Positions 970 through 46,718 of a stretch of DNA of 53,296 nucleotides are shown here, piece by piece. The notes under the pieces are model-generated. The model worked only from the letters and a program-made list of their open reading frames with translations, did no database searches and was not told the origin of the DNA. Every line of letters starts with the position of its first letter. Positions within the stretch are counted from its first letter, which is position 1. Made by a program: the position numbers and the translations under genes. The DNA comes from Candidatus Eiseniibacteriota bacterium (GTDB lineage Bacteria > Eisenbacteria > RBG-16-71-46 > SZUA-252). The stretch is taken from the NCBI GenBank assembly GCA_041486775.1, contig JBGPMB010000002.1:1-53296 (forward strand), read 5' to 3'.

Positions 970-2094
970 CTAGACGGGGGTCTCTTTGTTCTCGAACGGC
1001 TTCCAGGACTCGTCCGACGTGGCGTGGATTCCCTTCACGCGAAGCTCGAACTCGGTCGGATTGGAGCAGTACCGGAGCGCCGTCTCGAGGCTGATCTTCC
1101 CCTCCGTGTGGAACTTCATGATGGCCTGGTCGAAGGTCTGCATGCCGTATTGCGACACGCCTTCCTGGATCGCGCCCTTGATCAGGGACGTCTTCGACGG
1201 ATCGAGAAGGTACTCGCGGATGGTGGCGGTTGCCACCATGACTTCCGCCGCCGGAATTCGCCCGGATTGGTCGGAGCGCGGCATGAGCCGGAGCGCGATC
1301 ACCGCCTGGAGCGTGGCGGAGAGCATGTACCGCGTCTCCTCGTGCTGATGGGGCGGGAAGAAGGACAGGATCCGGTTGATCGTCTGCGCCGCGTCGGTCG
1401 TGTGGAGCGTGGTAAGCACGAGGTGGCCCGTGTCCGCCGCCATGAGCGCGGTCTGCATCGTCTCGGCGTCCCGGATCTCACCGATCAGGATCACGTCGGG
1501 ATCCTGACGCAGGATGTGCTTCAAGCCCTCGGCGAAGGAGGCCGTGTCGAGGCCCACCTCGCGCTGGGAGATGGTGCTCTTCTTGTCGCGGTAGAGGAAC
1601 TCCACCGGGTCCTCGATCGTGATCACGTTCTTGGCGATCGTTCGGTTCACCGAGTCGATCATGGCGGCCAGCGTGGTGGACTTGCCGCTCCCCACCGTTC
1701 CGCACACCAGCACGAGCCCGCGCGGGCGCGTCGCGATCTCCTCGATGGTCGACGGGAGATTCAGCTCCTCGAACGACGGAATGGTGGCCGGCACCTGCCG
1801 GAACACCATGGCGATGGTCCCGCGCTGCTGGTAGAAGTTGCTCCGGAAGCGCGAAAGGCCCGTCACGCCGAAGGCGAAGTCCACCTCCTTCGTCTCCTCG
1901 AAGGTCTTCTTCTGCTTCGGCGTCAGGATCTGATCCACGATCGCTTCGAGGTCGGCCTGTCCCGGCGCCGGCTCGTCGAGCGTCACGAGGGCCCCGTTCA
2001 CTCGCGCGGTGGGCTTGGTGCCCACCTTGACGTGAAGGTCGGACGCCTTGAGCTCCACCATCTTTTGCAGCACTCGCTTGATATTCATCCCCAC
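970..2094 (-). CDS. pilT: type IV pilus retraction ATPase, PilT/PilU family
   Basis: 374-aa ORF with Walker [11 protein letters not shown], Walker [13 protein letters not shown] and the [11 protein letters not shown] His box. The [21 protein letters not shown]-terminus is typical of PilT. Confidence 0.85.
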
Positions 2095-30470: not shown

Positions 30471-31699
30471 AGACCGGCGCGCGCCAGGATCGGGTCCAAG
30501 TCCCCGCGGGTGAGCGGGAGGGCGAGCGTGCCCTGCTCCGCGCCCTCCGTCGCGGTGGGAGAGAGGATGACGATGCGTTCCGGGCCACCGATTCCCATGG
30601 CGGCGATCCGCTCCATCACCCAAACGGCGCCCCGCGGAGGCAGCGTGCGCTCCAGAACATAGAGGGAGGGAGGCCTTCCGAGGGCGGCCCGCTCGAGCGC
30701 GCGGACGCCGTGCGGCGCCTCCTCGACACGGAGCCCGCGCTGTTCCAGGAGAATCCGCACCCACGCGCGGGTGACGGCCGATCGATGCGCGATCAGCACC
30801 AGCTCCGGATCGACCGGCTCGGCGGAGTCCTTTCCCGAAGCACTCCTCCCGTCCGGATCGGGCCTCTCGTAGGCGAAGCGCTCCCCCCACCGGACGGGTG
30901 TGAGCCCCAGGTCCTCCTCACCGATCGAATCCTCGGCGCCGAGAAGGAGCACGCCGCCGGGCGAAAGCGCCCGCACGAGATTCCCGAGGGCCGCGCGGCG
31001 GCCCTCCGCGGTCAGCGTCGGAAGGAATCCGCGCGCGAGGACGAGATCGAAGAGGCCCAGTGGAAGAAGCGAATCCGGCTCGCAGAGGTTGAGGCGCGCA
31101 AAGCGTACATGGGGCTTGAGCGCGCCCGCGACGATCTCGCCGCCGCGCTCGAGGAAGTAGCGCTCGCGGAGCGTGGCAGGAATCGATTCCGCTCGCGAGA
31201 CCGGATAGACCCCGCGCCGCGCGCGCGCCACGGCCCGCGCGCTCAGATCGGCGCCGATCACCTCGAATTCGAACGAGGGGGTTCGGGACCGGACCTCGGC
31301 GAGCGCGATGGCGAGCGAGTAGGCCTCTTCCCCGGTTCCGCACCCGGCGCTCAGGCAGCGGAAGGGGCCCTGGCCCGGGGCTGCCCGCCCCGAGCCCGGA
31401 TCGGAGGCCATCTCGAAGAGCGGAGTGAAATCTTCAGGCGAGCCGAAGACCCGCGACTCGTTGGCGGTGAGCGTCTCGGCCAGGTCTTCCCACGCGGCGC
31501 GATCCCCGGAATAGAGCAGGTACTCCGCGTAGGCTTCGGGCCCGTCGAGGGCCCGGTCCAAGATCCGGTAGCGAAGGCGCGGGAGCACACCCTCGGGAGC
31601 GCACTCGCGAAGCGAGAGCCCGAGGGTCTCGCCGAGGCGTTTCTCCAGGGCGTCGAGAGGGCGGCGCGCGAGGTCGGCGCCGGCCGGTTCAGCCGCCAT
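30467..31699 (-). CDS. CheR-type SAM-dependent methyltransferase fused to a degenerate (pseudo-)receiver domain
   Basis: Starts at ATG 31699 (MAAEPAGADL). CheR motifs are TANESRVFGSPEDF and CLSAGCGTGEEAYSLAIAL. The C-terminal ~115 aa align to CheY-like receivers with the acidic pair -> AH, phospho-Asp -> Glu (LYVLE) and the conserved Lys -> Leu. Confidence 0.75.
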   Translation of the reverse strand: MAAEPAGADLARRPLDALEKRLGETLGLSLRECAPEGVLPRLRYRILDRALDGPEAYAEYLLYSGDRAAWEDLAETLTANESRVFGSPEDFTPLFEMASDPGSGRAAPGQGPFRCLSAGCGTGEEAYSLAIALAEVRSRTPSFEFEVIGADLSARAVARARRGVYPVSRAESIPATLRERYFLERGGEIVAGALKPHVRFARLNLCEPDSLLPLGLFDLVLARGFLPTLTAEGRRAALGNLVRALSPGGVLLLGAEDSIGEEDLGLTPVRWGERFAYERPDPDGRSASGKDSAEPVDPELVLIAHRSAVTRAWVRILLEQRGLRVEEAPHGVRALERAALGRPPSLYVLERTLPPRGAVWVMERIAAMGIGGPERIVILSPTATEGAEQGTLALPLTRGDLDPILARAGL

Positions 31700-33110
31700 A
31701 ACCTCCAGGGGAATCGATCCGGTACTCCTTGAGCTTCGTGCGAAGGGTCTGCCTCGAGATTCCGAGCCATTCGGCGGCCTTGGTCTTGTTTCCCTCGGCC
31801 TGCTCGAGCGCCTTCTCGATCGCCATCCGCTCCGCCATGGCAATGGTCACGATCCCGTGCTCACCCTTGATCTTGCTCTCCAGCACGGCGCTCTGGCCCC
31901 CCACCGCTCCCACGATCTCCAGCGGCAGATGTTCGGGAAGAATCCACTCGTCGCTCTCGAGCAGGATCGCGCGCTCGATCACGTTCCGAAGCTCGCGCAC
32001 GTTCCCCGGCCAGCGGTAGGCGAGGAGCAGCTCCAGCGCGCGGTCGTTGGGACCCTTCACGTTTCGTCCCAGCTCGCGGTTCCAGTGCCCGACGAAATGG
32101 TCGATCAGCGGCGGAATGTCCTCGGGGCGCTCGCGGAGCGGCGGGACCGAGATGCGAATCACGTCCAGCCGGAAGAAGAGATCCTCCCGGAACTTTTCCT
32201 GCTGCACGAGCGTCTTCAAGTCCTTGTTGGTCGCCGCCACGATCCGGGTCTCGACCACGATGTCGCTCACGCCCTGGACGCGCCGGAATCGCTTTTGCTC
32301 CAGCGCGCGCAGGAGCTTGGACTGGGTCGCGAGGCTCATCTCGCCGATCTCGTCGAGGAAGAGCGTGCCTCCGTTCGCCAGCTCCATCAGTCCCTTCTTC
32401 ATCCGCTTGGCGTCGGTGAAGGCGCCCTTCTCGTAGCCGAAGAGCTCCGATTCCAGGAGGGTCTCGGGAATGGCGCTGCAGTTCAGCTCGACGAACGGAC
32501 CGTCGTGCAGCGGCCCCAGGTCGTGGATCTCCCGCGCGAGGAGCTCTTTCCCCACCCCGGTCTCCCCCTGGAGGAGCACGGTGGAGTTTCCCGCGGTCGC
32601 CACTTTCCGGATGGTCTCGAAGATCTTCGCGAGCTTCGAGCTTCCGCCCACGATGAGCGTCGAGCCCGCGCGGCGACGCTCCACCGCGCGCAGCCGCGTC
32701 ACCTCCTCGGAGAGGCGGGTCTGGGAGAGCGCGTTCTTGATCACGAGCTTCATGTGATCCAGCTCGAACGGCTTTCCGATGTAGTCGAAGCATCCCGCCT
32801 TGGTGGCCTCGACCGCGTTTTCGAACTTGCCGAAGGCCGTCATCATCACGACCTGCATGTCGGGATAGCGGGTACGGACCTCGCGCAGGAACTCGAGCCC
32901 GCTTCCGTCCGGCAGCTTCTGGTCGAGCAGCGCGAGATGGAATTCCTCCCGGTTCAAGATCGCCAGAGCCTCGGCTAAGTCTCCGGCCGTCTCCACCCGA
33001 TACCCCTCCTCCGAGAGACCCTCCTTGAGCGCGTACCGGAGGGTCTTCTCGTCGTCCACGACCAGAATCCCGAGCGTCTGTTTAGCGAGGATTACCGCGC
33101 CTGTCTCCAT
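31689..33110 (-). CDS. sigma-54-dependent response regulator (NtrC family: REC + AAA+ + Fis-type HTH)
   Basis: Starts at ATG 33110 (METGAVILAKQTLGILVVDDE). The phospho-acceptor is in LALLDQKLPDGSG, Walker A is GETGVGKE, and ESELFGYEKGAFTDA is a GAFTGA variant. It also has the RWPGNVRELRN motif and a C-terminal HTH, NKTKAAEWLGISRQTLRTKLKEY. Confidence 0.9.
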   Translation of the reverse strand: METGAVILAKQTLGILVVDDEKTLRYALKEGLSEEGYRVETAGDLAEALAILNREEFHLALLDQKLPDGSGLEFLREVRTRYPDMQVVMMTAFGKFENAVEATKAGCFDYIGKPFELDHMKLVIKNALSQTRLSEEVTRLRAVERRRAGSTLIVGGSSKLAKIFETIRKVATAGNSTVLLQGETGVGKELLAREIHDLGPLHDGPFVELNCSAIPETLLESELFGYEKGAFTDAKRMKKGLMELANGGTLFLDEIGEMSLATQSKLLRALEQKRFRRVQGVSDIVVETRIVAATNKDLKTLVQQEKFREDLFFRLDVIRISVPPLRERPEDIPPLIDHFVGHWNRELGRNVKGPNDRALELLLAYRWPGNVRELRNVIERAILLESDEWILPEHLPLEIVGAVGGQSAVLESKIKGEHGIVTIAMAERMAIEKALEQAEGNKTKAAEWLGISRQTLRTKLKEYRIDSPGGYGG

Positions 33111-34278
33111 GTCGTTTCTCCACGGGTAAGTCGATGAGCACGCTCGTTCCCTGCCCGACCACGCTTTCGATCGAGATGGAGCCTCCGTGCTCCCGGATGA
33201 TGGTCTGGCAAATACTGAGACCCAGCCCGGTCCCTTGCGTGCGCGTGGTGTAGAACGGATCGAAGACACGCGCGAGCACGGCCGCGGGAATTCCGGGACC
33301 GTTGTCTTGAACGCGGACTTCCACGAGATCGAGGATCGGAGCCTGGCGTCTTGTGTCCAGCCGGTCTCCGGAGCGCCGGCCGAGCCGCGAGCGCTCGGCG
33401 AGACGCTTGCGGACGGGACCGACGACGATCGAGAGCTCTCCTCCGCGATCCAGCGCCTGGAGCGCGTTCATCAGCACATTGAGCATGACTTGCAGGATTT
33501 GGTCGAGATCGACGTAGACGTCGGGGACCGTGTCGGCGCGCTTTACCTGTAAGAGCACGTTCTGGCGCACGGCCACCTCGTGCACGAGCGTGAGCGCTTT
33601 CTCGAGGGCCGGCAGGATGGACTGACGCTGGAGCTTCGGGGTCGCGGGCCGGGCGAACTGGAGGAGCCCGGTCACGATGCGATCCAGGCGCGACACCTCT
33701 TCCAGGATGAGATCGATGAATTGAGCCCGCGGGTCTCCCACGTCGAGCCGGCGTTTCATCACCTGGGCGGAGGTGCCGATCCCGGCCAGGGGGTTTCGGA
33801 TCTCGTGGGCCACGCCCGCGGCGAGAGCGCCCAGCGAGGCGAGCCGGTCCCGCCGGCGCCACTGGTCCTCGAGCGCCTTCTGCTCGCGCAGATCCTGGAA
33901 CAGGGCGAGGGTGCCCTGGAGCGCGCCGTCCAGCCCTTCGAGCGGAAGGAGCCGCAGGCCCACGGGAAGCACGTCGCCCGATCGCGTGACCACCTCCACC
34001 TCGCGCGATTCCTCCGGGGCCGCGCAGGCGCCGGGGGATACGTGCGACTCGCCGCGGGGCGCCCGCAGGATTCGCGCGACCGCTTCCCCCTCGACCTCCT
34101 CCGCCGCGTAGCCCAGGAGCTTCGAGGCGGCCGGGTTCATGGCCTGGATGGTTCCGTCCCGGCCGATCGCCATCACCCCGAACGGCGCGTGCTTGAGGAA
34201 GCTCCACGCCGCGTCGAGGCCCTGCGGCCCGGGTGGCGCCGGCTCTCCGCCCGCGCGGAGCACGCTCCGGGATCTCAT
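33082..34278 (-). CDS. cytoplasmic PAS-domain sensor histidine kinase
   Basis: ATG 34278 overlaps the upstream stop (ATGA). It has a PAS-like segment (FGVMAIGRDGTIQAMNPAASKLLGY), H-box GVAHEIRNPL, N-box NVLMNALQAL, and G boxes DNGPGIP and GTGLGLSI. No TM segment is seen. Confidence 0.85.
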   Translation of the reverse strand: MRSRSVLRAGGEPAPPGPQGLDAAWSFLKHAPFGVMAIGRDGTIQAMNPAASKLLGYAAEEVEGEAVARILRAPRGESHVSPGACAAPEESREVEVVTRSGDVLPVGLRLLPLEGLDGALQGTLALFQDLREQKALEDQWRRRDRLASLGALAAGVAHEIRNPLAGIGTSAQVMKRRLDVGDPRAQFIDLILEEVSRLDRIVTGLLQFARPATPKLQRQSILPALEKALTLVHEVAVRQNVLLQVKRADTVPDVYVDLDQILQVMLNVLMNALQALDRGGELSIVVGPVRKRLAERSRLGRRSGDRLDTRRQAPILDLVEVRVQDNGPGIPAAVLARVFDPFYTTRTQGTGLGLSICQTIIREHGGSISIESVVGQGTSVLIDLPVEKRHGDRRGNPR

Positions 34279-35171
34279 GCGCGGGCCGCCTCGACGCGAC
34301 GCGCGGCTTCCGCGGCAAGCTCGCGGAGCGAGGGATCGCCGCCCCGCGCGACCGCGCGGAGTCTCGGCAGCGCTTCGGGGTCGCCGAGCGCGCCGAGCGC
34401 TTCGATGGCCGAAGCCCGGACCGGCAGCGCCGCGGTGGAGGCCGCCTCGAGCAAGGCCCCCGCCGCGTCCGGGTCCCGGTGCCGCGCGAGAGCGCGGGCC
34501 GCCGCGCGTCCGACGCCGGCGCTGGGATCGAAGAGAAGGCGCCGGAGCCACGCGGATCGCTCGACTCCCGTGGCCCGCTCCAGCCCCGAGGCGAACGTCT
34601 GTCTCACGCCGGCGTCCGGATCGCGGAGAAGAGGCTCGAGGGGTTCGAGACCCAGCGCCGCCGAGGCGGTGAGCCGGGCGCGCAGGGCGTGGGCGCGAAC
34701 GCGCGGGTCCTCGTCCGCGAGAAGCGCGGCCGCGCACGGGAGCCAGAATTCGCCCTCGTTCAGGCTCATCGCGGCCGCCAGCCTCACCTCCACGTCGGGA
34801 TCGCCGACGGCGGCGGGAAACAAGGCGCCGGCCCGGCGCGGGTCGCACGCCCTGAGGGCAGCGGCGCGCGAGGCGCCGTCTGGAGCGCGATCGAAGAGCG
34901 CCGCCGCGTCGATCTCATGCTCGCGGATGGCGCGGAGCGCGACGAGAGCGGCCTGCCTCACGTCGGGATAGGTGTCGGACAGAAGGGACTCCAGAGCCAC
35001 GCCCGCGTCGGCGCAGCGTAGGAGTCCCAGAGCCTCGGCGGCTTGCGCGCGCACATGCCCCACGGGATCGGCGGTGAGGGAGCGCGCCGCCTCCGCGGCC
35101 CCCGGGCCGCCGGAGCGCCCCGCCAGCGCGACGGAGCGCTCGCGCACCAGCGCAACCTCGAGCGTGGTCAA
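34275..35171 (-). CDS. HEAT-repeat protein (downstream part; same frame as 35172..36083 across one TAG)
   Basis: 298 aa with repeated DPxxxVRxxAAxALG units (DPVGHVRAQAAEALG, YPDVRQAALVAL, DPDVEVRLAAAMSL, DPRVRAHALRA, DPDAGVRQTF). The first codon after the TAG is TTG. Confidence 0.6.
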   Translation of the reverse strand: MTTLEVALVRERSVALAGRSGGPGAAEAARSLTADPVGHVRAQAAEALGLLRCADAGVALESLLSDTYPDVRQAALVALRAIREHEIDAAALFDRAPDGASRAAALRACDPRRAGALFPAAVGDPDVEVRLAAAMSLNEGEFWLPCAAALLADEDPRVRAHALRARLTASAALGLEPLEPLLRDPDAGVRQTFASGLERATGVERSAWLRRLLFDPSAGVGRAAARALARHRDPDAAGALLEAASTAALPVRASAIEALGALGDPEALPRLRAVARGGDPSLRELAAEAARRVEAARA

Positions 35172-36166: not shown

Positions 36167-36349
36167 TCAAGCGGATTCAGGGCGCTCAGGCTCCGGGGGG
36201 GCACTCGCGCGCGCGAGACGGCGCAAGATGAGGTGGCTCAGGACCCGGCGAACCTCGGGGCGGTCGTAGTAGCGGTCTCGGATGCGGCGCCGGACTTCAG
36301 CGATCCGCGAGGACGCGTCGACCTGGGGCTCAATTGAGGTTAGCGGCAC
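36167..36349 (-). CDS. 60-aa protein resembling the C-terminal sigma-28-binding region of FlgM (tentative)
   Basis: GTG start; overlaps the upstream ORF by 20 nt. SRIAEVRRRIRDRYYDRPEVRRVLSHLI follows the FlgM pattern (B. subtilis [26 protein letters not shown]). GC3-rich codons. This is a by-eye comparison only. Confidence 0.35.
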   Translation of the reverse strand: MPLTSIEPQVDASSRIAEVRRRIRDRYYDRPEVRRVLSHLILRRLARASAPPEPERPESA

Positions 36350-36665
36350 GGCTGCGGTCCCTCCGGATCGATGCGATGGCTTCCATCCAGCTATCCTTCA
36401 AGTCGGCGAGCATCTCGGCCGCTTCGTCGAAGCGCCCCTCCGCCGACTCCGTGATGCAAAAATCGAGAATCCCGATCACGCGTCCCGCCACATCCTCGCT
36501 CGCGAGCTCCAGACACTGCATGGACTCGCGGAGCGCCTCCTCGACCACCGGGCGGCTCCCGCTCCGGCACCCCCGGAGCGCGCAGTCGAGGAGGGCCAAG
36601 ACCTCGTCGCAGCGGCGCAGCCAGCGGTCCAGCTCAGCGGGGTTCTCCTCGTACGTCTGACTCAC
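36330..36665 (-). CDS. 111-aa all-helical protein, FliS-like by eye (tentative), translationally coupled to csrA
   Basis: The GTG start overlaps the csrA stop (GTGA). The C-terminal [16 protein letters not shown] resembles B. subtilis FliS DFRDAWKQAIQSERKD. The preceding [25 protein letters not shown] resembles the FliS helix MGAMYDYMYRRLVQANIKND. Confidence 0.4.
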
Positions 36666-36886
36666 TTCGAGCCGCTTCCCTGGCCGTCGGATACCTCCGG
36701 CTTGACCGCCTGGGCCCTTCGGTTCTCTTCCTGGATGCGCTCGTAGATCTCTTCGCGGTGAACCTTCACACTCGGCGGCGCGTCGATCCCAAGCTTCACG
36801 TGATTACCCTTCACTTCCACGATCGTGATCTTCACGTCGTCTCCGATCCGGATATTTTCGCCAAGCTTTCGGGTCAGGAGGAGCAT
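36662..36886 (-). CDS. csrA: carbon storage regulator CsrA (RNA-binding translational regulator)
   Basis: The C-terminal 74 aa of track ORF 36662..37993 read [55 protein letters not shown]. This is near-identical in pattern to E. coli CsrA. A GAGGG Shine-Dalgarno lies 4 nt upstream of ATG 36886. Confidence 0.9.
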
Positions 36887-37017
36887 CGTGCCCTCGACGA
36901 TCTCCGGCATCCTGCCGGGGGGAGCGTTTTCAACTTGAGCCGGCTCCAGGGCCTCGCCTCGTGCGCGTCCCTTCGCGGCTCGTCCTGATTTTTCTTCGGC
37001 AGGAACCCGCTCCTTCT

Positions 37018-38084: not shown

Positions 38085-38900
38085 TCAGCCCGGGTCGAGT
38101 CCGGGCAGCTTCTTCCGGAACTCCCGCGCGAATCTCCGGGCAGCTTCCTCCCGGGTGTTCGCGTCCGGGGCCGCGAGGACGGCGTCGAGAAGGGCGCTCC
38201 CCACCACGACGCCTTCGGCCTTCCCGCGATAGCGCTCGAGCGGCGTGTTCAGCCCGATGCCGAAACCGAGGCAGCGCGGCACCGAGGTCAGCTCGCGGCA
38301 GCGAACGAGAAGCGATTCCACCGAGGTGTCTTCGACGCCGCGGCCCGTCACCCCCAGCCGCGCCACGACGTAGAGAAATCCCCTCGACCCCTGCACCACG
38401 CGCGGGAGCCGCGCCGGATCGGTGGTGGGCGCGACGAGCGCGATCGTATCGATGCCGCTCTCGCGCAAGCTTCCCCAGAGGGCGGGCTCCTCCTCGGGCG
38501 GCAGATCCACGAGCACGAGCCCGTCCACGCCGGCCGCCGAGGCGTCCGCCGCGAACCGCGAGGCCCCGTAGCGGAGGACCGGATTCAGATACGTCATGAG
38601 CACGAGCGGTGTCTCGTGCCGCGCGCGAAGCCTCATGGCTTGACCCAGGACGTGCGCGAGCGTGGTGCCCGTGCGCAGGGCCGCCTCGGTCGTGCGCTGG
38701 ATGACGGGTCCGTCGGCGATGGGATCGGAGAAAGGAACTCCCAGCTCGAGGGCGTCGGCCCCTTCCTCGCAGAGGGCCGAGGCGAGGCGGTCCGATTCCA
38801 CGAGGTCGGGAAAGCCGGAGGTGAGGAACGGCACGAACGCGCCGCGGCACTCCCGGCGGGCGTTCTCGAAGGCGCGGCCGATCCGGCCGGGCCCGGTCAC
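38085..38900 (-). CDS. trpA: tryptophan synthase alpha subunit
   Basis: [17 protein letters not shown] and GFGI motifs. The GTG start overlaps the upstream TPR gene stop (GTGA). No trpB is in the window. Confidence 0.9.
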
Positions 38901-39922
38901 CCGCTCAGGGCCGCGGCCCGCCGATAGGCTTCGCGGGCACGGGCCGGCAGCTCCTTCTTGTCGAAGGCCACGCCCAGCAGACGGTGGATGCGGGGATCGT
39001 CCGGGTTCAGGCGGGCGGCCGTCTCGAGGGCCAGGATGGCTTGATCCACCGCCTCCTGGCTGTTGTAGGCAACCCCGAGATAATAGTGGAAGCGCGCCTC
39101 GTCGGGCCGCCTCTCGATAGCCTGCTTCAGGTCCTCGACCGCTCGCGCGTAGGCTCCCGTGCGCTGGTGCAGGAGGGCCAGCGCGTAGAGCCCCTCCACG
39201 TTCCCCGGATCCAGCCGGACCGACTCGAGCAGCGTGGCCTCGGCCTCCCGCAGCTCGTCCTCGGCGAGCAGCGCCCAGCCCAGGTTGAAGTGCGATTCCG
39301 AGGACTCGGGATTGAGCTCGACCGCGCGGCGAAATTCGGCCAACGCCTCCTCACGAAGCCCTTGCTCCGCGTAGAGAGCGCCCAGGTTCGTGTGCGCCTC
39401 GGAGCACTTAGGATCGGCCGCGACGGCGCGCTGGAGTGCGCTCAGGCCGCCCTTCCGGTCGCCGCTGTCGGCCCGCGCGAGCCCGAGATTCACCCAGGCC
39501 CTCACGTGGTCCGGCTTCAGGCGGATCGCCTCTTCGTAGGCCTCCGCGGCCTTCCCGATCCGTCCCTGGCGCCCGTGGTGGAGCCCTTGCAGGTACCAGG
39601 CCTCGACGCTCCGGGGATCCGATTCGAGCGAGGTGGCGAAATAGAGATCCGCCTCCTCGAAGCTGCCGGCGCGAGAGAGAAGATCGGCGAGCGAGGCCAG
39701 CAGAGCGGCGTGGCGGGAGTGCGTGAGGATTCCCTGGCGCAGGACGTCGATGGCGCGCTCGCGGTGTCCCTCGAGCGCGAAGATGCGGGCCGCTTCGCGG
39801 ATCTGCTCGGGATCGGAGGAGCCGCGCGCGAGGCTTTCCGCGAGGGCGAGACTCTCTTCGCTCCCCGCGTGGGACGCTCCGAGCGGAGTGTCCGTCATCA
39901 CCATCGGCATGGCCCGATCCAC
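38897..39922 (-). CDS. TPR-repeat protein
   Basis: 341 aa, essentially wall-to-wall 34-residue TPR units (AWYLQGLHHGRQGRIGKAAEAYEEAIRLKPD, AWVNLGLARADSGDRKGGLSALQRAVAADPK, etc.). Confidence 0.7.
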   Translation of the reverse strand: MDRAMPMVMTDTPLGASHAGSEESLALAESLARGSSDPEQIREAARIFALEGHRERAIDVLRQGILTHSRHAALLASLADLLSRAGSFEEADLYFATSLESDPRSVEAWYLQGLHHGRQGRIGKAAEAYEEAIRLKPDHVRAWVNLGLARADSGDRKGGLSALQRAVAADPKCSEAHTNLGALYAEQGLREEALAEFRRAVELNPESSESHFNLGWALLAEDELREAEATLLESVRLDPGNVEGLYALALLHQRTGAYARAVEDLKQAIERRPDEARFHYYLGVAYNSQEAVDQAILALETAARLNPDDPRIHRLLGVAFDKKELPARAREAYRRAAALSG

Positions 39923-39969: not shown

Positions 39970-41265
39970 CTACGGAATGGGCTCCAGGTCGCGCGTGAAC
40001 GAATCGTCGAAGCCGTCGGCCTTCTTGCCACCGCCGGATTTCTTCGGCGCGTCGTCCGCATCGACCCGGATCGCGATCTCCACCGTCATGGTGATGCGCC
40101 CGGAGCGCGGAAGCACGCCCAGCTCGATGGGAATCGAGACGCGCCGCGTGTCCCCGGAGCCGGAACCGGAGCCCATCTTGGGGCCCGCGGTCATGGAGGG
40201 CACGCCCGGCTCGAATTCGAAGTCGCCGATCGATTCCTCGTCGGCCGCGCTCGGCGCCGGTACCGGCGCCCGGGTGGCGCGGGCCGGCTCCGCCGCGCGC
40301 GCGGGCGTTGCGACGGGCGGGTGCGGGATCATGTCCTCTTCGTTCAACACCAACTCCTCTTCGGCATTGAGGGGCTGGGGCATCTCGGCGACCGGCGCGT
40401 CGTCGATCAGCGCCTCGTCGCCGAGGAGCGGCGTGGCCTCGAAGGCAGCGGCCGCCGGGCTCCCGCTTCCCCGGACCGGCTCTTCGGCCGGGGCCTCGGT
40501 CTCCATCGGCTCGGCCTCCATGGGCTCCGGCTGCCCCTTGCCGCGCTTCAGGTATTTCAGGAGCTTTCCGCCCGTCGGCACCTTTTCCTGCTTCTTGGAC
40601 TCGACGGCCGAGGCTTCGGCTTTCGCGGCGGTCGCCTTCGCCCGGGCGAGGCCCTGCACGGCGCCCTTGTCCTTCTCGAGGACGTCCTTCGTTATCTTCG
40701 CGAGGAGGAGCTTGGAAACGCCGCGGAGCGTCTCGAACACGCCCACGCCGTTGGCCGCCTGCGCCTCGAAGAAGGGAACCTTCAGCCGGTTCAGCTCGCG
40801 GTTCAGGTCTTCGACCGATACCGCGTTCGGCAGGTCGCGCTTGTTGTATTGGAGAACGAGCGGGATGGTCTTGATGTCGATCCCGTACGCCTTGAGGTTG
40901 AGCTCGAGGTTCGCGTAGCTCTCGCGGTTCTCCGCCATCTTGTCCGCCGCGGAGTCCGCGACGAAGACCACGGCATCGACGCCCTTCAGCACCAGCTTCC
41001 GCGTGGCGTTGTAGTACACCTGGCCCGGCACCGTATAGAGAAGAAGCCGGGTCTTCATGCCCTGAAGGTCGCCCAGGTCCAGAGGAAGGAGATCGAAGAA
41101 GAGCGTCCGGTCGGTCTGCGTCTTCATCGAGACCATGCGGCCCCGATTCGTCTCGGGAACGCTGTCGTAGATCTTCTCGAGGTTGGTCGTCTTGCCGCTG
41201 AGACCCGGACCGTAATACACGATCTTCGCGTTGATCTCGCGTCCCGAATAGCTCACCACCACCAT
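39970..41265 (-). CDS. MglA-family Ras-like GTPase with ~235-aa acidic/Pro-rich C-terminal extension
   Basis: The first ~195 aa closely track Myxococcus MglA: REINAKIVYYGPGLSGKTTN, DRTLFFDLLP, LYTVPGQVYYNATRKLVLKGVDAVVFVADS and QYNKRDLP. The rest is low-complexity, ending in a short beta-like segment RRVSIPIELGVLPRSGRITMTVEIAIRVD. GAGGAG Shine-Dalgarno. Confidence 0.85.
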   Translation of the reverse strand: MVVVSYSGREINAKIVYYGPGLSGKTTNLEKIYDSVPETNRGRMVSMKTQTDRTLFFDLLPLDLGDLQGMKTRLLLYTVPGQVYYNATRKLVLKGVDAVVFVADSAADKMAENRESYANLELNLKAYGIDIKTIPLVLQYNKRDLPNAVSVEDLNRELNRLKVPFFEAQAANGVGVFETLRGVSKLLLAKITKDVLEKDKGAVQGLARAKATAAKAEASAVESKKQEKVPTGGKLLKYLKRGKGQPEPMEAEPMETEAPAEEPVRGSGSPAAAAFEATPLLGDEALIDDAPVAEMPQPLNAEEELVLNEEDMIPHPPVATPARAAEPARATRAPVPAPSAADEESIGDFEFEPGVPSMTAGPKMGSGSGSGDTRRVSIPIELGVLPRSGRITMTVEIAIRVDADDAPKKSGGGKKADGFDDSFTRDLEPIP

Positions 41266-41473: not shown

Positions 41474-41887
41474 CTAGACGCGCGGGTCCCGCCGGATCCA
41501 GATTCCCTGACGCTCCTTGATCTGGAGCTGGGGCGCGTTGGGGTCGGACACGCTCTCGTAGTGGCCGAGCAGGAGCCCCTTCAGCGAGGGGTAGTCGGTG
41601 GTCGGGAAATAGCGGCTCACGCGGCTGAACATGCCGTCCTGCTCCGAGTAGCGAAGAAGCTCCACCTCCGTGACGCGCTCGTACTGGTTTTCGCCGTACG
41701 CCGCCTCGGGGCTTTCGGCCACGTCGATCCAGAGTGAGGCCACGCTTCGGGTGATCTCGAAGCGGTGCTTCGTGCGCATGAGGAACTCCCACAGCCCGTA
41801 GATCTCCAGGGGCACGTACCGGACCGTCGCGTCTCCCTGCGAATCCGGCCTTCGAATCTCGCAGCGCACCAGCTTCTGACTCGCCAT
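41474..41887 (-). CDS. hypothetical 137-aa protein
   Basis: C-terminal part of track ORF 41474..42628, starting MASQKLVRCEIRR. The ATG is preceded by GGAGGTG 4 nt upstream. The composition is balanced and non-shadow-like (YVPLEIYGLWEFLMRTKHRFEITR...). I recognise no family. Confidence 0.6.
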   Translation of the reverse strand: MASQKLVRCEIRRPDSQGDATVRYVPLEIYGLWEFLMRTKHRFEITRSVASLWIDVAESPEAAYGENQYERVTEVELLRYSEQDGMFSRVSRYFPTTDYPSLKGLLLGHYESVSDPNAPQLQIKERQGIWIRRDPRV

Positions 41888-42021
41888 CGAACCACCTCCG
41901 GATGGACCACCTGTCCATGGCATGCGCGTTGCACATCTACGTCGCCGAGAGCCGAACAAAACGCCCACGAGGAAACGCGGGTGCGGAATGGCTCCGGTCC
42001 CAAGGTCCCGAGGAGGACACC

Positions 42022-42219
42022 ATGAAACCGAACCCGCACTCCCCCGCCACGAGAACCAACGGCCGCCGAGCGCGCGAAGTCTATTGCCGGCGCGACAATC
42101 GCGTGTACGCGGTGTGTCCGCACGTCGCCGCGGGCTCGCATTGCCGCTGTCTCTCCGAAGTCGAGACCGCCGATGCTCTCTTCGAATCGGATGGAGCGGA
42201 CACCAAGCTCGGCCACTGA
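42022..42219 (+). CDS. candidate 65-aa Cys/His-rich small protein
   Basis: The ATG is preceded by AGGAGG with a 5-nt spacer. The sequence is MKPNPHSPATRTNGRRAREVYCRRDNRVYAVCPHVAAGSHCRCLSEVETADALFESDGADTKLGH. Third codon positions are mostly G/C. The stop is embedded in the 8-bp-stem hairpin at 42218-42243. It lies within a longer track ORF (41902..42219). Confidence 0.4.
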   Translation: MKPNPHSPATRTNGRRAREVYCRRDNRVYAVCPHVAAGSHCRCLSEVETADALFESDGADTKLGH

Positions 42220-42243: not shown

Positions 42244-42323
42244 CGTGGGTAAAATCCCGCTGTCCTGGGCCGCACTCTAGGCGCCGCGAGGGCGCCAAGT
42301 CAAACAAAAGCCCTCCCCGATTC

Positions 42324-45749: not shown

Positions 45750-46634
45750 CTAGAAGACCTTCTTCCCCTCCGCGAGCATCTCGTTCAGCGCGTCACGGAA
45801 ATAGGGAGTGGAGTTCGCCATCTCCGCCGTGACGCGCTCCTTGTAGACCTCCCAGGATTTCTTGATCTCGTATCCCAGGACCGCGACCAGATTCCCGTCC
45901 TTCACGCCGCGGTCCCGCTTTTCCTTGTTGTAGATGGCGATGTCCGACGCGAGCACCCGCGCGAGACGCCGCGCCCGCTCGTGCTTCAGACGCTCCGCCT
46001 CGGGCAGCCCCGGCGGGATTCCGGCCGAGCGGGAGTACGGGCTCACCGCGGCGGGCTGAGCCGTCCCGGCGTCCGGGGAAGGCGGCATCGGCGAGGAAGC
46101 CGCCTGCGGCGGAGGCGGGGGCATGATCGACTGGGGCGAGGGCACCCGCGGCGGCGGCGGCGGAGCGGCTGGAGACGCCGCCGCAGCGGGCGCCGCGGAA
46201 GCGAACGCGTTGGCGAATTTCTCGATTTCCGCGGGCGAGCCCTGGACGGCCGGCGGAGGGGGCGGCGCGAAGGGCGACGGCGCTCCCTGCGAAGGCGAAG
46301 GCGCGGCCTCGAACGGCGACGTGTCGAACCGTGAGTGCCCCACGGGTGAGGGCATCGCGGGTGAGGGCATCGCTCCGGCGGGCGAGGACTCGAACGGTGA
46401 CGTATCGAACCGCGAGGGCGGCGGCGGCGCGGCCTCGGGCGGCGGAGGAGGAATAGCCGCTTGAGGCGTCGGCGGGATCAGCGGAAGCTCGGCCGGCGTC
46501 GGCGGCGCGGTTGCGGATTTCTCGATGGAAAAAACCGACTGGCACTTGCGGCAACGAACGCGCGCGCCCTGGGCCGGAATCTTCTCATCGGCGATGACGT
46601 AGCGAGCGCCGCATGAGCTGCATTCGACGTGCAT
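45750..46634 (-). CDS. MJ0042-type zinc-ribbon protein with Pro-rich linker and conserved C-terminal domain
   Basis: MHVECSSCGARYVIADEKIPAQGARVRCRKCQSVFSI is the MJ0042 CxxC finger. A long Pro-rich repeat-containing linker follows, then a C-terminal helical domain (RRLARVLASDIAIYNKEKRDRG...). I prefer ATG 46634 (GAGGG 5 nt upstream) to the track's GTG 46640. Confidence 0.7.
   Translation of the reverse strand: MHVECSSCGARYVIADEKIPAQGARVRCRKCQSVFSIEKSATAPPTPAELPLIPPTPQAAIPPPPPEAAPPPPSRFDTSPFESSPAGAMPSPAMPSPVGHSRFDTSPFEAAPSPSQGAPSPFAPPPPPAVQGSPAEIEKFANAFASAAPAAAASPAAPPPPPRVPSPQSIMPPPPPQAASSPMPPSPDAGTAQPAAVSPYSRSAGIPPGLPEAERLKHERARRLARVLASDIAIYNKEKRDRGVKDGNLVAVLGYEIKKSWEVYKERVTAEMANSTPYFRDALNEMLAEGKKVF
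46309..46412 (-). repeat. nested coding repeats in the zinc-ribbon protein linker
   Basis: Two 23-bp copies (46309-46331 and 46390-46412, 2 mismatches) encode SRFDTSPFE twice. They flank a perfect 15-bp tandem duplication (46344-46358 and 46359-46373) encoding AMPSPAMPSP. Confidence 0.85.
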
Positions 46635-46718
46635 CCACACCCTCGTTCGATTGATGTAGGAATCAGGTGGTCGCTATCCCTCTATCGGCTTTCGGAGGGC
46701 CATCTTTCGAGGAATCGT

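Follow-up and report, generated by a model that had tools for sequence, protein, structure and literature searches.

A Ras-like MglA-type GTPase with a conserved C-terminal tail and no adjacent mglB in Candidatus Eiseniibacteriota

In a 53,296-nt stretch of DNA from a Candidatus Eiseniibacteriota bacterium (assembly GCA_041486775.1, contig JBGPMB010000002.1, positions 1 to 53,296 of the forward strand; hereafter the window), we identified a gene for a small GTPase of the MglA family that continues, in the same reading frame, into a long C-terminal tail. The open reading frame (ORF) at 39970..41265 on the minus strand is intact from ATG to stop, encodes 431 aa plus the stop, and is preceded by a GAGGAG Shine-Dalgarno sequence located 8 nt 5′ of the start; the ORF itself, its match to MglA, its homologues and its codon composition identify it as a complete coding sequence. 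We are confident, with respect to both identity and architecture, that this gene encodes a genuine MglA-type Ras-like switch with a conserved tail of 236 residues. The best overall explanation, which we favour with modest conviction, is that the tail of this Group-1 MglA is a flexible tether or docking arm; the tether mechanism itself is proposed more tentatively. MglA is the model bacterial Ras-like polarity switch, and its understanding has been built on short single-domain forms paired with MglB, a GTPase-activating protein (GAP) of the Roadblock fold.

The GTPase domain

Residues 1-195 (40681..41265, minus strand) constitute the GTPase (G) domain. The first-pass annotation of this DNA, made from the letters and their translations, had proposed that these residues follow Myxococcus MglA motif for motif, and the alignment bears this out: residues 3-193 align without a gap with MglA of Myxococcus xanthus (58% identity, E = 1.8e-72) and, over the same residues and again without a gap, with MglA of Thermus thermophilus (E = 1e-66). 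The corresponding phmmer matches to known structures were 6h17, 6hjh and 5ymx (E = 1.8e-72) and 3t12 (E = 1e-66). Pfam and NCBIfam returned only weak, generic small-GTPase matches for the tailed protein, and a Foldseek search with a poor AlphaFold2 (AF2) model gave MglA crystal structures as its best matches (E = 3e-13, target template modelling (TM) score 0.60-0.65).

Group 1 of the MglA family, which comprises MglA and SofG, is characterised by an Arg beside the Thr of G2, TVPGQ in G3 and a normal [NT]KxD motif (PMC4316618). We found all of these features in the window protein, at residue numbers equal to those of M. xanthus MglA (GPGLSGKT26, D52-R53-T54, T78-VPG-Q82 and N141-KRD144). First, the P-loop of G1, for which the consensus is GxxxxGK[T/S], reads G19-PGLSGKT26, and G19, G24, K25 and T26 are invariant in the 150 representative sequences described below. 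Second, the intrinsic Arg finger R53 adjoins T54, in alignment with R53/T54 of M. xanthus, and is present in 150 of 150 representatives. Third, G3 reads TVPGQ (T78 to Q82), and not DxxGQ or GTPGQ. Fourth, G4 reads N141-K-R-D144. The intrinsic Arg (in DRTLFFD) and catalytic Gln (in TVPGQ) pointed out at first pass are both in place, as R53/T54 and Q82. The protein is a Group-1 (MglA/SofG-type) small GTPase with intact catalytic motifs; it has every catalytic and similarity feature of that group, and it departs from the surveyed type in two respects: at 431 aa it exceeds the single-domain size of 150-240 aa, and its gene has no coupling to mglB. Among 110 homologues the G domain hardly varies, with a column identity of 0.97-1.00 across residues 1-100. 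By analogy with the Myxococcus and Thermus proteins, this domain would act as a GTP/GDP switch whose GTP-bound form binds effectors, and we infer from M. xanthus and T. thermophilus MglA that its hydrolysis would depend on a GAP.

Integrity of the gene and anatomy of the tail

Might the extension be an artefact, arising from loss of a stop codon, a frameshift, a chimeric assembly or read-through into another gene? The one point in favour of this is that the protein is unusually long for an MglA. However, a search of 5.8 billion proteins yielded more than 110 full-length homologues (393-455 aa, 52-93% identity, 100% coverage) with the same architecture in independent assemblies from JGI, ENA, NCBI and Logan, some of them on contigs 0.8 to 3.1 Mb long, and their C-terminal motifs remain in frame although indels in the linkers are many. 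In addition, the GC content at third codon positions (GC3) is 0.89 over codons 1-195 and stays at 0.90 throughout the 236 codons that follow, the window as a whole having about 68% GC; because GC3 is even across the GTPase part and the tail, the entire ORF carries the coding signature of the genome. A stop codon lost here and kept by the relatives, which the first-pass annotation had named as one of the findings that would overturn its proposal, is contradicted by the more than 110 homologues that keep the extension. On these grounds, a lost stop or fusion artefact is ruled out, and we assign the artefact explanation a negligible probability.

The tail (residues 196-431) is rich in Ala (15%), Glu (11%), Pro (11%) and Gly (9%) and has a net charge of -14. 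In alignments of 30 and 110 homologues, its conservation is concentrated in six islands, in which column identity is 0.6-0.8, separated by linkers in which it is 0.2-0.4. All of the following elements lie on the minus strand. Residues 196-231 (40573..40680) form a moderately conserved Lys/Ala-rich extension of the last GTPase helix; the helix predicted by AF2 spans residues 174-221, with a predicted local distance difference test score (pLDDT) of about 60-70. This is followed by a basic amphipathic motif, GGKLLKYLKRGKG, at residues 232-244 (40534..40572), in which G233, K234 and K240 are invariant and L235, L236, Y238 and L239 face the side opposite K234, K237, K240 and R241; its hydrophobic moment is 0.59-0.78, and its occurrence (GGKLLKYLKRG) is non-random against shuffled tails (p = 0.01). 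This motif appears to resemble the membrane-targeting helices of MinD and FtsA. Alignment conservation then marks two acidic-hydrophobic islands, FEATPLLGDEALIDDA at residues 275-290 (40396..40443; consensus EPTPLLxDDALIEE) and LNAEEELVLNEEDMIP at residues 299-314 (40324..40371; consensus NAEEELVLTEEDLI), the second of which has three residues, E304, L307 and D311, that 90% or more of 110 homologues keep and that do not vary among the 30 sequences of the smaller alignment. It likewise marks a short island, GDFE(R/F)EP, at residues 347-353 (40207..40227). Near the end is a β-hairpin-like module, RRVSIPIELGVLPRSGRITMTVEIAIRVD, at residues 374-402 (40060..40146), with the consensus RRISIPIDLGxLPxSGRxTLTFEIxIxV, in which P379, L382, P386 and G389 are invariant in the family. 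The extreme C-terminal peptide FDDSFTRDLEPIP (residues 419-431; 39973..40011) contains the conserved SFTRDLEPIP.

The full-length AF2 model, built from the 110-sequence alignment, was poor (pLDDT 55), with values below 50 for residues 1-70 and for most of the tail, probably as a result of the near-invariance of the G domain in that alignment; the module region, at 62-75, had the highest values in the tail. Pfam searches with three tails alone gave no match at E up to 10, and a profile of the module gave nothing meaningful against sequences in the Protein Data Bank; the module has no detectable relative in either collection. A PilZ-like reading of the RRxxxP...SG pattern was discarded by eye, as both the spacing and the size are wrong. 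The tail had been described at first pass as a Lys/Ala-rich helix, a long acidic and Pro-rich disordered stretch and a short β-like C-terminal module, and this description fits the predicted helix over 174-221 and the negative charge, Pro content and low pLDDT of the linkers; the module proves to be characteristic of a large clade.

A clade of tailed MglA proteins

In a scan at one genome per species, the full-length relatives were found almost entirely in metagenome-assembled genomes (MAGs) named Candidatus Eisenbacteria or Eiseniibacteriota; a few occurred in bins labelled Binatia, Dormiibacterota, Hyphomicrobiales and Bacteroidota, which look mis-binned. One MAG labelled Dormiibacterota (DASQAV01; loci L010 and L014) carries two different copies of tailed mglA on two contigs, whose products share 70% and 87% identity with the window protein; these are either a paralogue pair or the product of a mixed or mis-binned MAG. 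In tblastn searches, deeper Eisenbacteria and Latescibacterota/Krumholzibacteriia matched over residues 1-198 only, yet their ORFs reach 450-580 aa, with unrelated Pro/Ala/Glu-rich linkers and the same kind of module at the end (e.g., EIREVRVVVPLALTRAQLEGGAPIRIVLDVKIVD and SIEIPLPLKQGERMEEVTLTIKIRLKP).

How widespread are such proteins? We searched 1.84 billion cluster representatives exhaustively with HMMER, using the G domain alone, and obtained 2169 matches at E ≤ 1e-30. The best 150 of these 2169 are 57-93% identical, and all have the G domain at the N-terminus; K25, T26, R53, T54, D58, T78, G81 and Q82 are kept in 150 of 150, and NKxD in nearly all. As many as 143 of the best 150 are at least 300 aa long (maximum 668), a result that demonstrates how many and how varied the tailed forms are, and does not mean that short MglAs are fewer. 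Statistically, the clades could not be linked with a hidden Markov model (HMM) that represented the module in the narrow family, as it was too short (best E = 0.006, against 0.1 for reversed decoys), and we therefore used a pattern, [IVLT]x[IVL]P[IVLM]x[IVLMT] followed by a loop of 4-18 residues and four alternating hydrophobic residues, with shuffled sequences and linker windows as controls. The pattern occurs in the last 90 aa of 89 of the 142 long representatives, at a median distance of 12 residues from the end of the module to the C-terminus, and in 0 of 233 linker windows; shuffled versions of the same segments matched 0.3 times on average and at most twice. By eye, the 53 pattern-negative representatives comprise about 20 variants of the module, about 14 proteins whose C-terminal helix is basic, amphipathic and MinD-like (KKKGFFDGLFRKDK-COOH and related ends), 4 with a C-terminal transmembrane helix and 7 with frameshift junk. 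Of the best 150 representatives, between about two thirds and three quarters terminate in the same module of about 30 aa, and nearly every tailed MglA closes with one of three short elements, two of which are obvious membrane anchors. Many module-bearing proteins also hold an internal basic amphipathic motif, such as VGERLRRWLSR, RGLWRWLRK, GFWSRIFRR or FLGRIFGRKKR. In the lineages that have a gene for a 137-aa protein beside mglA (see below), and only in these, the tail continues for about 25-30 aa past the module.

Two of the tailed MglAs with a MinD-like helix, P0313 (668 aa) and P0335 (665 aa), have very long Pro/Gly/Gln-rich linkers and are flanked by Roadblock genes (loci L059, 3121-6422, and L067, 56-2645). 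Locus L059 also holds a MAPKK1_Int-like gene and a PatA_N gene, and a PatA_N gene follows a tailed mglA in a contig of the Acidobacteriota lineage UBA4820 (L064) as well.

On the question left open at first pass, built-in regulator or localisation module, the comparative data summarised above lean towards tethering or localisation, because the alternative C-terminal ends of relatives are membrane anchors and the tail holds an internal MinD-like motif. Under the tether reading, the tail would be intrinsically disordered and carry short docking elements: the basic amphipathic helix GGKLLKYLKRGKG could hold the protein at the cytoplasmic membrane, and the module, the C-terminal peptide and the acidic-hydrophobic motifs could dock onto partner proteins, for which the best candidates would be the co-encoded and co-conserved 137-aa and tetratricopeptide repeat (TPR) proteins. 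There are precedents for such a design. FtsZ is a GTPase with a variable disordered linker and a conserved C-terminal peptide, and Ras, Rho and Rab have hypervariable tails that target them to membranes. With these proteins, and with MinD and FtsA, the tailed MglAs share a conserved core, a variable disordered linker and a short conserved tethering end, and in some of them the end is a KKGFFxxLF helix like that of MinD or a transmembrane helix; there is no homology to FtsZ, Ras, MinD or FtsA, however, and the terminal element of the tailed MglA is a β-hairpin-like module.

Several points weigh against this picture. The invariance of G233, K234 and K240 would be at least as well accounted for by protein binding as by a helix that binds lipid, and the Latescibacterota proteins have no obvious internal amphipathic motif. 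The full-length AF2 model (pLDDT 55) shows neither docking nor secondary structure for the module, and the module does not strictly co-occur with the TPR neighbour. The list of 150 representatives is inflated, in that divergent tails split into many clusters at 50% identity and short MglAs collapse into few, and the module pattern was devised after the sequences had been viewed. Finally, we found no description of MglA tails or of the terminal module, but this was without a full-text search of the literature, so that an earlier description is possible.

With that reservation, the tailed MglA proteins, of roughly 300-670 aa, form a large clade that is apparently undescribed. They span Eisenbacteria, Latescibacterota/Krumholzibacteriia, one Acidobacteriota lineage and others, with catalytic residues intact. 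In SofG of M. xanthus, which works with bactofilins, the extra residues are short flanking extensions, and we know of neither a disordered tail of 200 aa or more nor a terminal module in that protein. By description, SofG is likewise a Group-1 protein with the intrinsic Arg, uncoupled from mglB and longer than MglA (239 aa) (PMC4316618). In their survey of 2012-era genomes, Wuichet and Sogaard-Andersen found 488 sequences of the MglA subclade, of which 39 were longer than 240 aa and were excluded from classification (PMC4316618). Compared by description, these 39 also have an MglA G domain in a longer polypeptide, 25 of them being uncoupled, and they are probably the same kind of protein as the tailed MglA; their tails, modules and neighbourhoods were left undescribed there (PMC4316618). 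Long MglA-like proteins were thus seen previously and set aside by the survey's 240-aa limit. If the tail is a tether, bacterial small GTPases would share the logic of a membrane tail with eukaryotic Ras and Rab.

Linkage to mglB and regulation of the switch

Canonical MglA (M. xanthus MXAN_1925, 195 aa; T. thermophilus, 196 aa) has a G domain with the same motifs, 58% identical to ours without a gap; in contrast, the window protein has 236 extra C-terminal residues with conserved motifs, and its locus has no mglB, the neighbours being genes for the 137-aa protein and the TPR protein. In the survey, coupling was defined as a position within four genes of mglB, and most sequences of the MglA subclade were coupled in this sense (PMC4316618). 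The window gene has no mglB within that distance. We searched for MglB in the window and, in relatives, in flanks of up to 10 kb per side of mglA, shorter where contigs end. The Pfam family Robl_LC7 was detected neither in the two adjacent genes nor in six further window ORFs of 111-233 aa. Searches of six-frame ORFs of the window and 57 loci, with phmmer (M. xanthus and T. thermophilus MglB) and with a two-sequence HMM (--max), gave no match, the best E values of 1.7-6 being noise, and independent gene calls with precomputed Pfam annotation contained no MglB either. As a positive control, the MglB HMM detected true mglB genes at E = 1e-32 and 1e-23. In total, neither the 53 kb of the window nor the surroundings of the gene at about 65 related loci yielded an mglB or Roadblock gene, so that the first-pass statement that no Roadblock/LC7-like gene is adjacent holds both here and in the loci of relatives. 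Hydrolysis of GTP would not be under the control of an adjacent MglB; the GAP, if any, may be unlinked, non-Roadblock or in cis.

The tailed proteins with a membrane-anchor tail behave differently. An adjacent Roadblock gene was present in 3 of 3 such cases (P0313, P0335 and P0354) and in 0 of 10 module-bearing lineages (core Eisenbacteria, deep Eisenbacteria, Latescibacterota/Krumholzibacteriia, P0243, P0259, P0264, P0342, P0318, P0365 and P0376), an anticorrelation with a Fisher p of 0.0035, in a comparison whose lineages are not independent and some of whose contigs are short. This result keeps alive the idea of a built-in regulator, the chief rival of the tether reading, in which the module or the whole tail would be a cis-acting substitute for MglB that folds back on its own switch regions, either positioning Arg53 and Gln82 as a built-in GAP-like element or masking the effector face in auto-inhibition. 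The specific form of this idea, in which the module replaces the Roadblock GAP in cis and sets the rate of hydrolysis or gates the access of effectors, would explain why mglB adjoins only the module-less tailed forms; docking could then be released or enforced by binding of the tail to the membrane or by the TPR and 137-aa partners. It fits, moreover, with the extraordinary constraint on the G domain, with the comparatively high pLDDT of the module region and with the separate internal amphipathic motif of many module-bearing proteins, as a result of which the module need not serve as the anchor. However, the sample is small and its lineages are phylogenetically non-independent, a hairpin of 30 aa is very small in comparison with an MglB dimer, and no structural prediction supports docking. 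Only three G-domain positions, all lineage markers, separate module-bearing from MglB-coupled forms; the switch surface is therefore equally conserved in both classes, and there is no systematic difference between them. The gene for MglB may also simply be unlinked, as in the 59 uncoupled MglA homologues of the survey (PMC4316618). We regard a cis-acting tail in general as unlikely, and its specific form, with the module in the place of MglB, as at the lower end of that range. If the module did substitute for MglB, it would represent a new mode of small-GTPase regulation and a handle on orphan MglA-like GTPases such as SofG, and the tailed MglAs would be self-contained, single-polypeptide polarity switches.

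A simpler possibility is that this MglA is an orphan by position only, with a canonical MglB, and perhaps RomR/RomX-like factors, encoded elsewhere in the genome and a tail that adds localisation or little function. The 59 uncoupled MglAs provide precedents; earlier studies had dealt with just two of them, SofG (239 aa, no known GAP) and Bdellovibrio MglA (PMC4316618). Furthermore, the switch regions are conserved as in MglB-coupled relatives, and the search for MglB spanned 53 kb of this genome together with the limited flanks of its relatives. Non-linkage is nevertheless systematic over about 65 module-bearing loci in several phyla, whereas the anchor-type relatives keep an adjacent mglB, and six islands of the tail are under clear constraint. 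To this explanation we give a minor though appreciable share of probability. It is compatible with either the tether or the cis-acting reading of the tail, as is the proposal, discussed next, that the 137-aa protein is the regulator.

Neighbouring genes

The order 137-aa gene, tailed mglA, TPR gene and trpA recurs in essentially every core Eisenbacteria locus of sufficient extent; in deep Eisenbacteria, the 137-aa and TPR genes are retained, and trpA is not. The 137-aa gene (41474..41887, minus strand), reported at first pass as an upstream gene of no recognised family, lies where it was described, separated from mglA by a gap of 208 nt, and has no Pfam or NCBIfam match. It is directly upstream on the same strand in 39 of 57 loci, which is every core and deep Eisenbacteria locus that reaches far enough. 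Its identity is 54-91% among the database homologues listed and 56-98% in syntenic loci; all 716 relatives are annotated "hypothetical".

Could this protein be the cognate regulator of the tailed MglA, a GAP, guanine nucleotide exchange factor or localisation factor that takes the place of MglB or RomX without the Roadblock fold? Several features would suit such a role: its constant position; its conservation, which is as strong as that of the G domain (25 invariant columns in 53 sequences); its MglB-like size and α/β model (pLDDT 78, in the order β-β-α-β-β-β-α-β); the lack of any other annotation among its relatives; and the restriction of the longer tail, extending past the module, to lineages that have the gene. 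On the other hand, the gene is absent beside the Latescibacterota and other module-bearing tailed MglAs, the 208-nt gap separates it from mglA, and adjacency alone does not imply interaction. As a divergent MglB/Roadblock protein it was rejected, since Pfam and NCBIfam gave none, hhalign against MglB gave a probability of 0.2%, and the best Foldseek match had E = 0.045, with TM ≤ 0.28. We consider a regulatory role of this kind rather improbable at present.

Downstream of mglA is a gene for a cytoplasmic TPR protein (38897..39922, minus strand), 341 aa from a GTG start, with an ATG 12 nt further in. It has multiple TPR repeats (TPR_16, TPR_2 and TPR_1 at E = 1e-41 to 1e-45), no signal peptide, and no specific equivalog model that attained its cut-off. 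A TPR neighbour had been noted at first pass, and the association extends to at least two phyla: in Latescibacterota, a TPR gene of the same size and kind, with about 34% identity, follows the tailed mglA, and in a further lineage (L060) a TPR gene (32% identity over 294 aa, E = 3e-47) follows it and is itself followed by trpA. In Myxococcus, the TPR protein SgmX and the Zn-ribbon of GltJ are effectors of MglA, the GltJ ribbon binding MglA-GTP. The window has a likeness to both, with the TPR gene directly downstream of mglA and a gene for an MJ0042-type Zn-ribbon protein about 4.5 kb away. Compared with SgmX and GltJ, however, the window TPR protein has 341 aa and generic TPR matches, and the similarity to GltJ covers the ribbon only (46 residues, 31 bits against a cut-off of 450). 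The TPR protein is a reasonable candidate for an effector or partner of the tailed MglA, and the locus thereby puts forward two families of possible partners, both uncharacterised: the 137-aa protein and the TPR protein of roughly 340 aa.

The Zn-ribbon gene (45750..46640, minus strand) adjoins recG and encodes 296 aa: a zinc ribbon at the N-terminus (Zn_ribbon_4, E = 8e-14) is joined through a Pro-rich linker to a C-terminal domain that is conserved. The gene is syntenic with the tailed mglA in Eisenbacteria and Latescibacterota. At one distant tailed MglA locus (L066), a different protein with two Zn-ribbons is encoded directly downstream. At the other end of the conserved string, trpA (38085..38900, minus strand) is present without trpB, and its start overlaps the TPR stop by 4 nt (38897..38900), which suggests translational coupling; we note it as context only. 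Beyond it, at 36330..36900 on the minus strand, are genes for CsrA and then a conserved 111-aa protein with no family match, a pair that is syntenic in 20 loci, CsrA being Pfam-confirmed in the orthologue of L058.

Promoter elements and motility context

A sigma-70-like promoter, TTGACT-18-TAGAGT, is located at 42274..42303 on the minus strand, facing the 137-aa gene, mglA and the TPR gene, and both of its hexamers are unchanged across 11 loci. A small ORF of 65 aa, MKPNPHSPATRTNGRRAREVYCRRDNRVYAVCPHVAAGSHCRCLSEVETADALFESDGADTKLGH (42022..42219, plus strand), lies between the 137-aa gene and a gene for an LpxL-like acyltransferase; it is apparently unannotated, with the conserved Cys/His pattern C-x9-CPH-x7-C-x-C and codon periodicity in an 11-locus DNA alignment; its presence explains the antisense ORF matches at this position in 34 loci. 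A near-consensus sigma-54 -24/-12 element, TGGCATGCGCGTTGCA (41918..41933, plus strand), is the sole match in the window, where 0.04 would be expected, and faces the small Cys-rich ORF, the lpxL-like gene and a GT4 gene. Equivalent sites are present in at least 33 Eisenbacteria loci (e.g., L005, 9264-9279, minus strand). The conservation of the DNA upstream of the 137-aa gene is accounted for by the small ORF and these promoter elements, and Rfam detected no family over the whole window. The window also encodes an NtrC-type sigma-54 activator (31689..33269, minus strand) and a histidine kinase (33082..34848, minus strand).

In a divergent Eisenbacteria subclade, a second sigma-54-type element occurs roughly 85-105 nt upstream of the tailed mglA start, on the same strand as mglA (L011, 9895-9910; L013, 9893-9908; L024, 1436-1451; L026, 2917-2932; L057, 3337-3352; L058, 9895-9910; all plus strand). 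This arrangement suggests that expression of mglA may be sigma-54-dependent in that subclade; at the same position upstream of mglA, the window has no exact sigma-54 match.

What might the switch control? The window encodes a PilT/PilU-family retraction ATPase of type IVa pili (970..2094, minus strand; TIGR01420, 445 bits), and on a 251-kb Eisenbacteria contig minor-pilin genes (N_methyl and PilX_N; L058, 1-2075) lie about 8-10 kb from the orthologous mglA. From this gene content, Eisenbacteria probably have type IV pili, and the G domain of the tailed MglA would probably control type IV pilus-based motility or polarity, so that the locus directs attention to a system for motility or polarity in a phylum without cultivated members.

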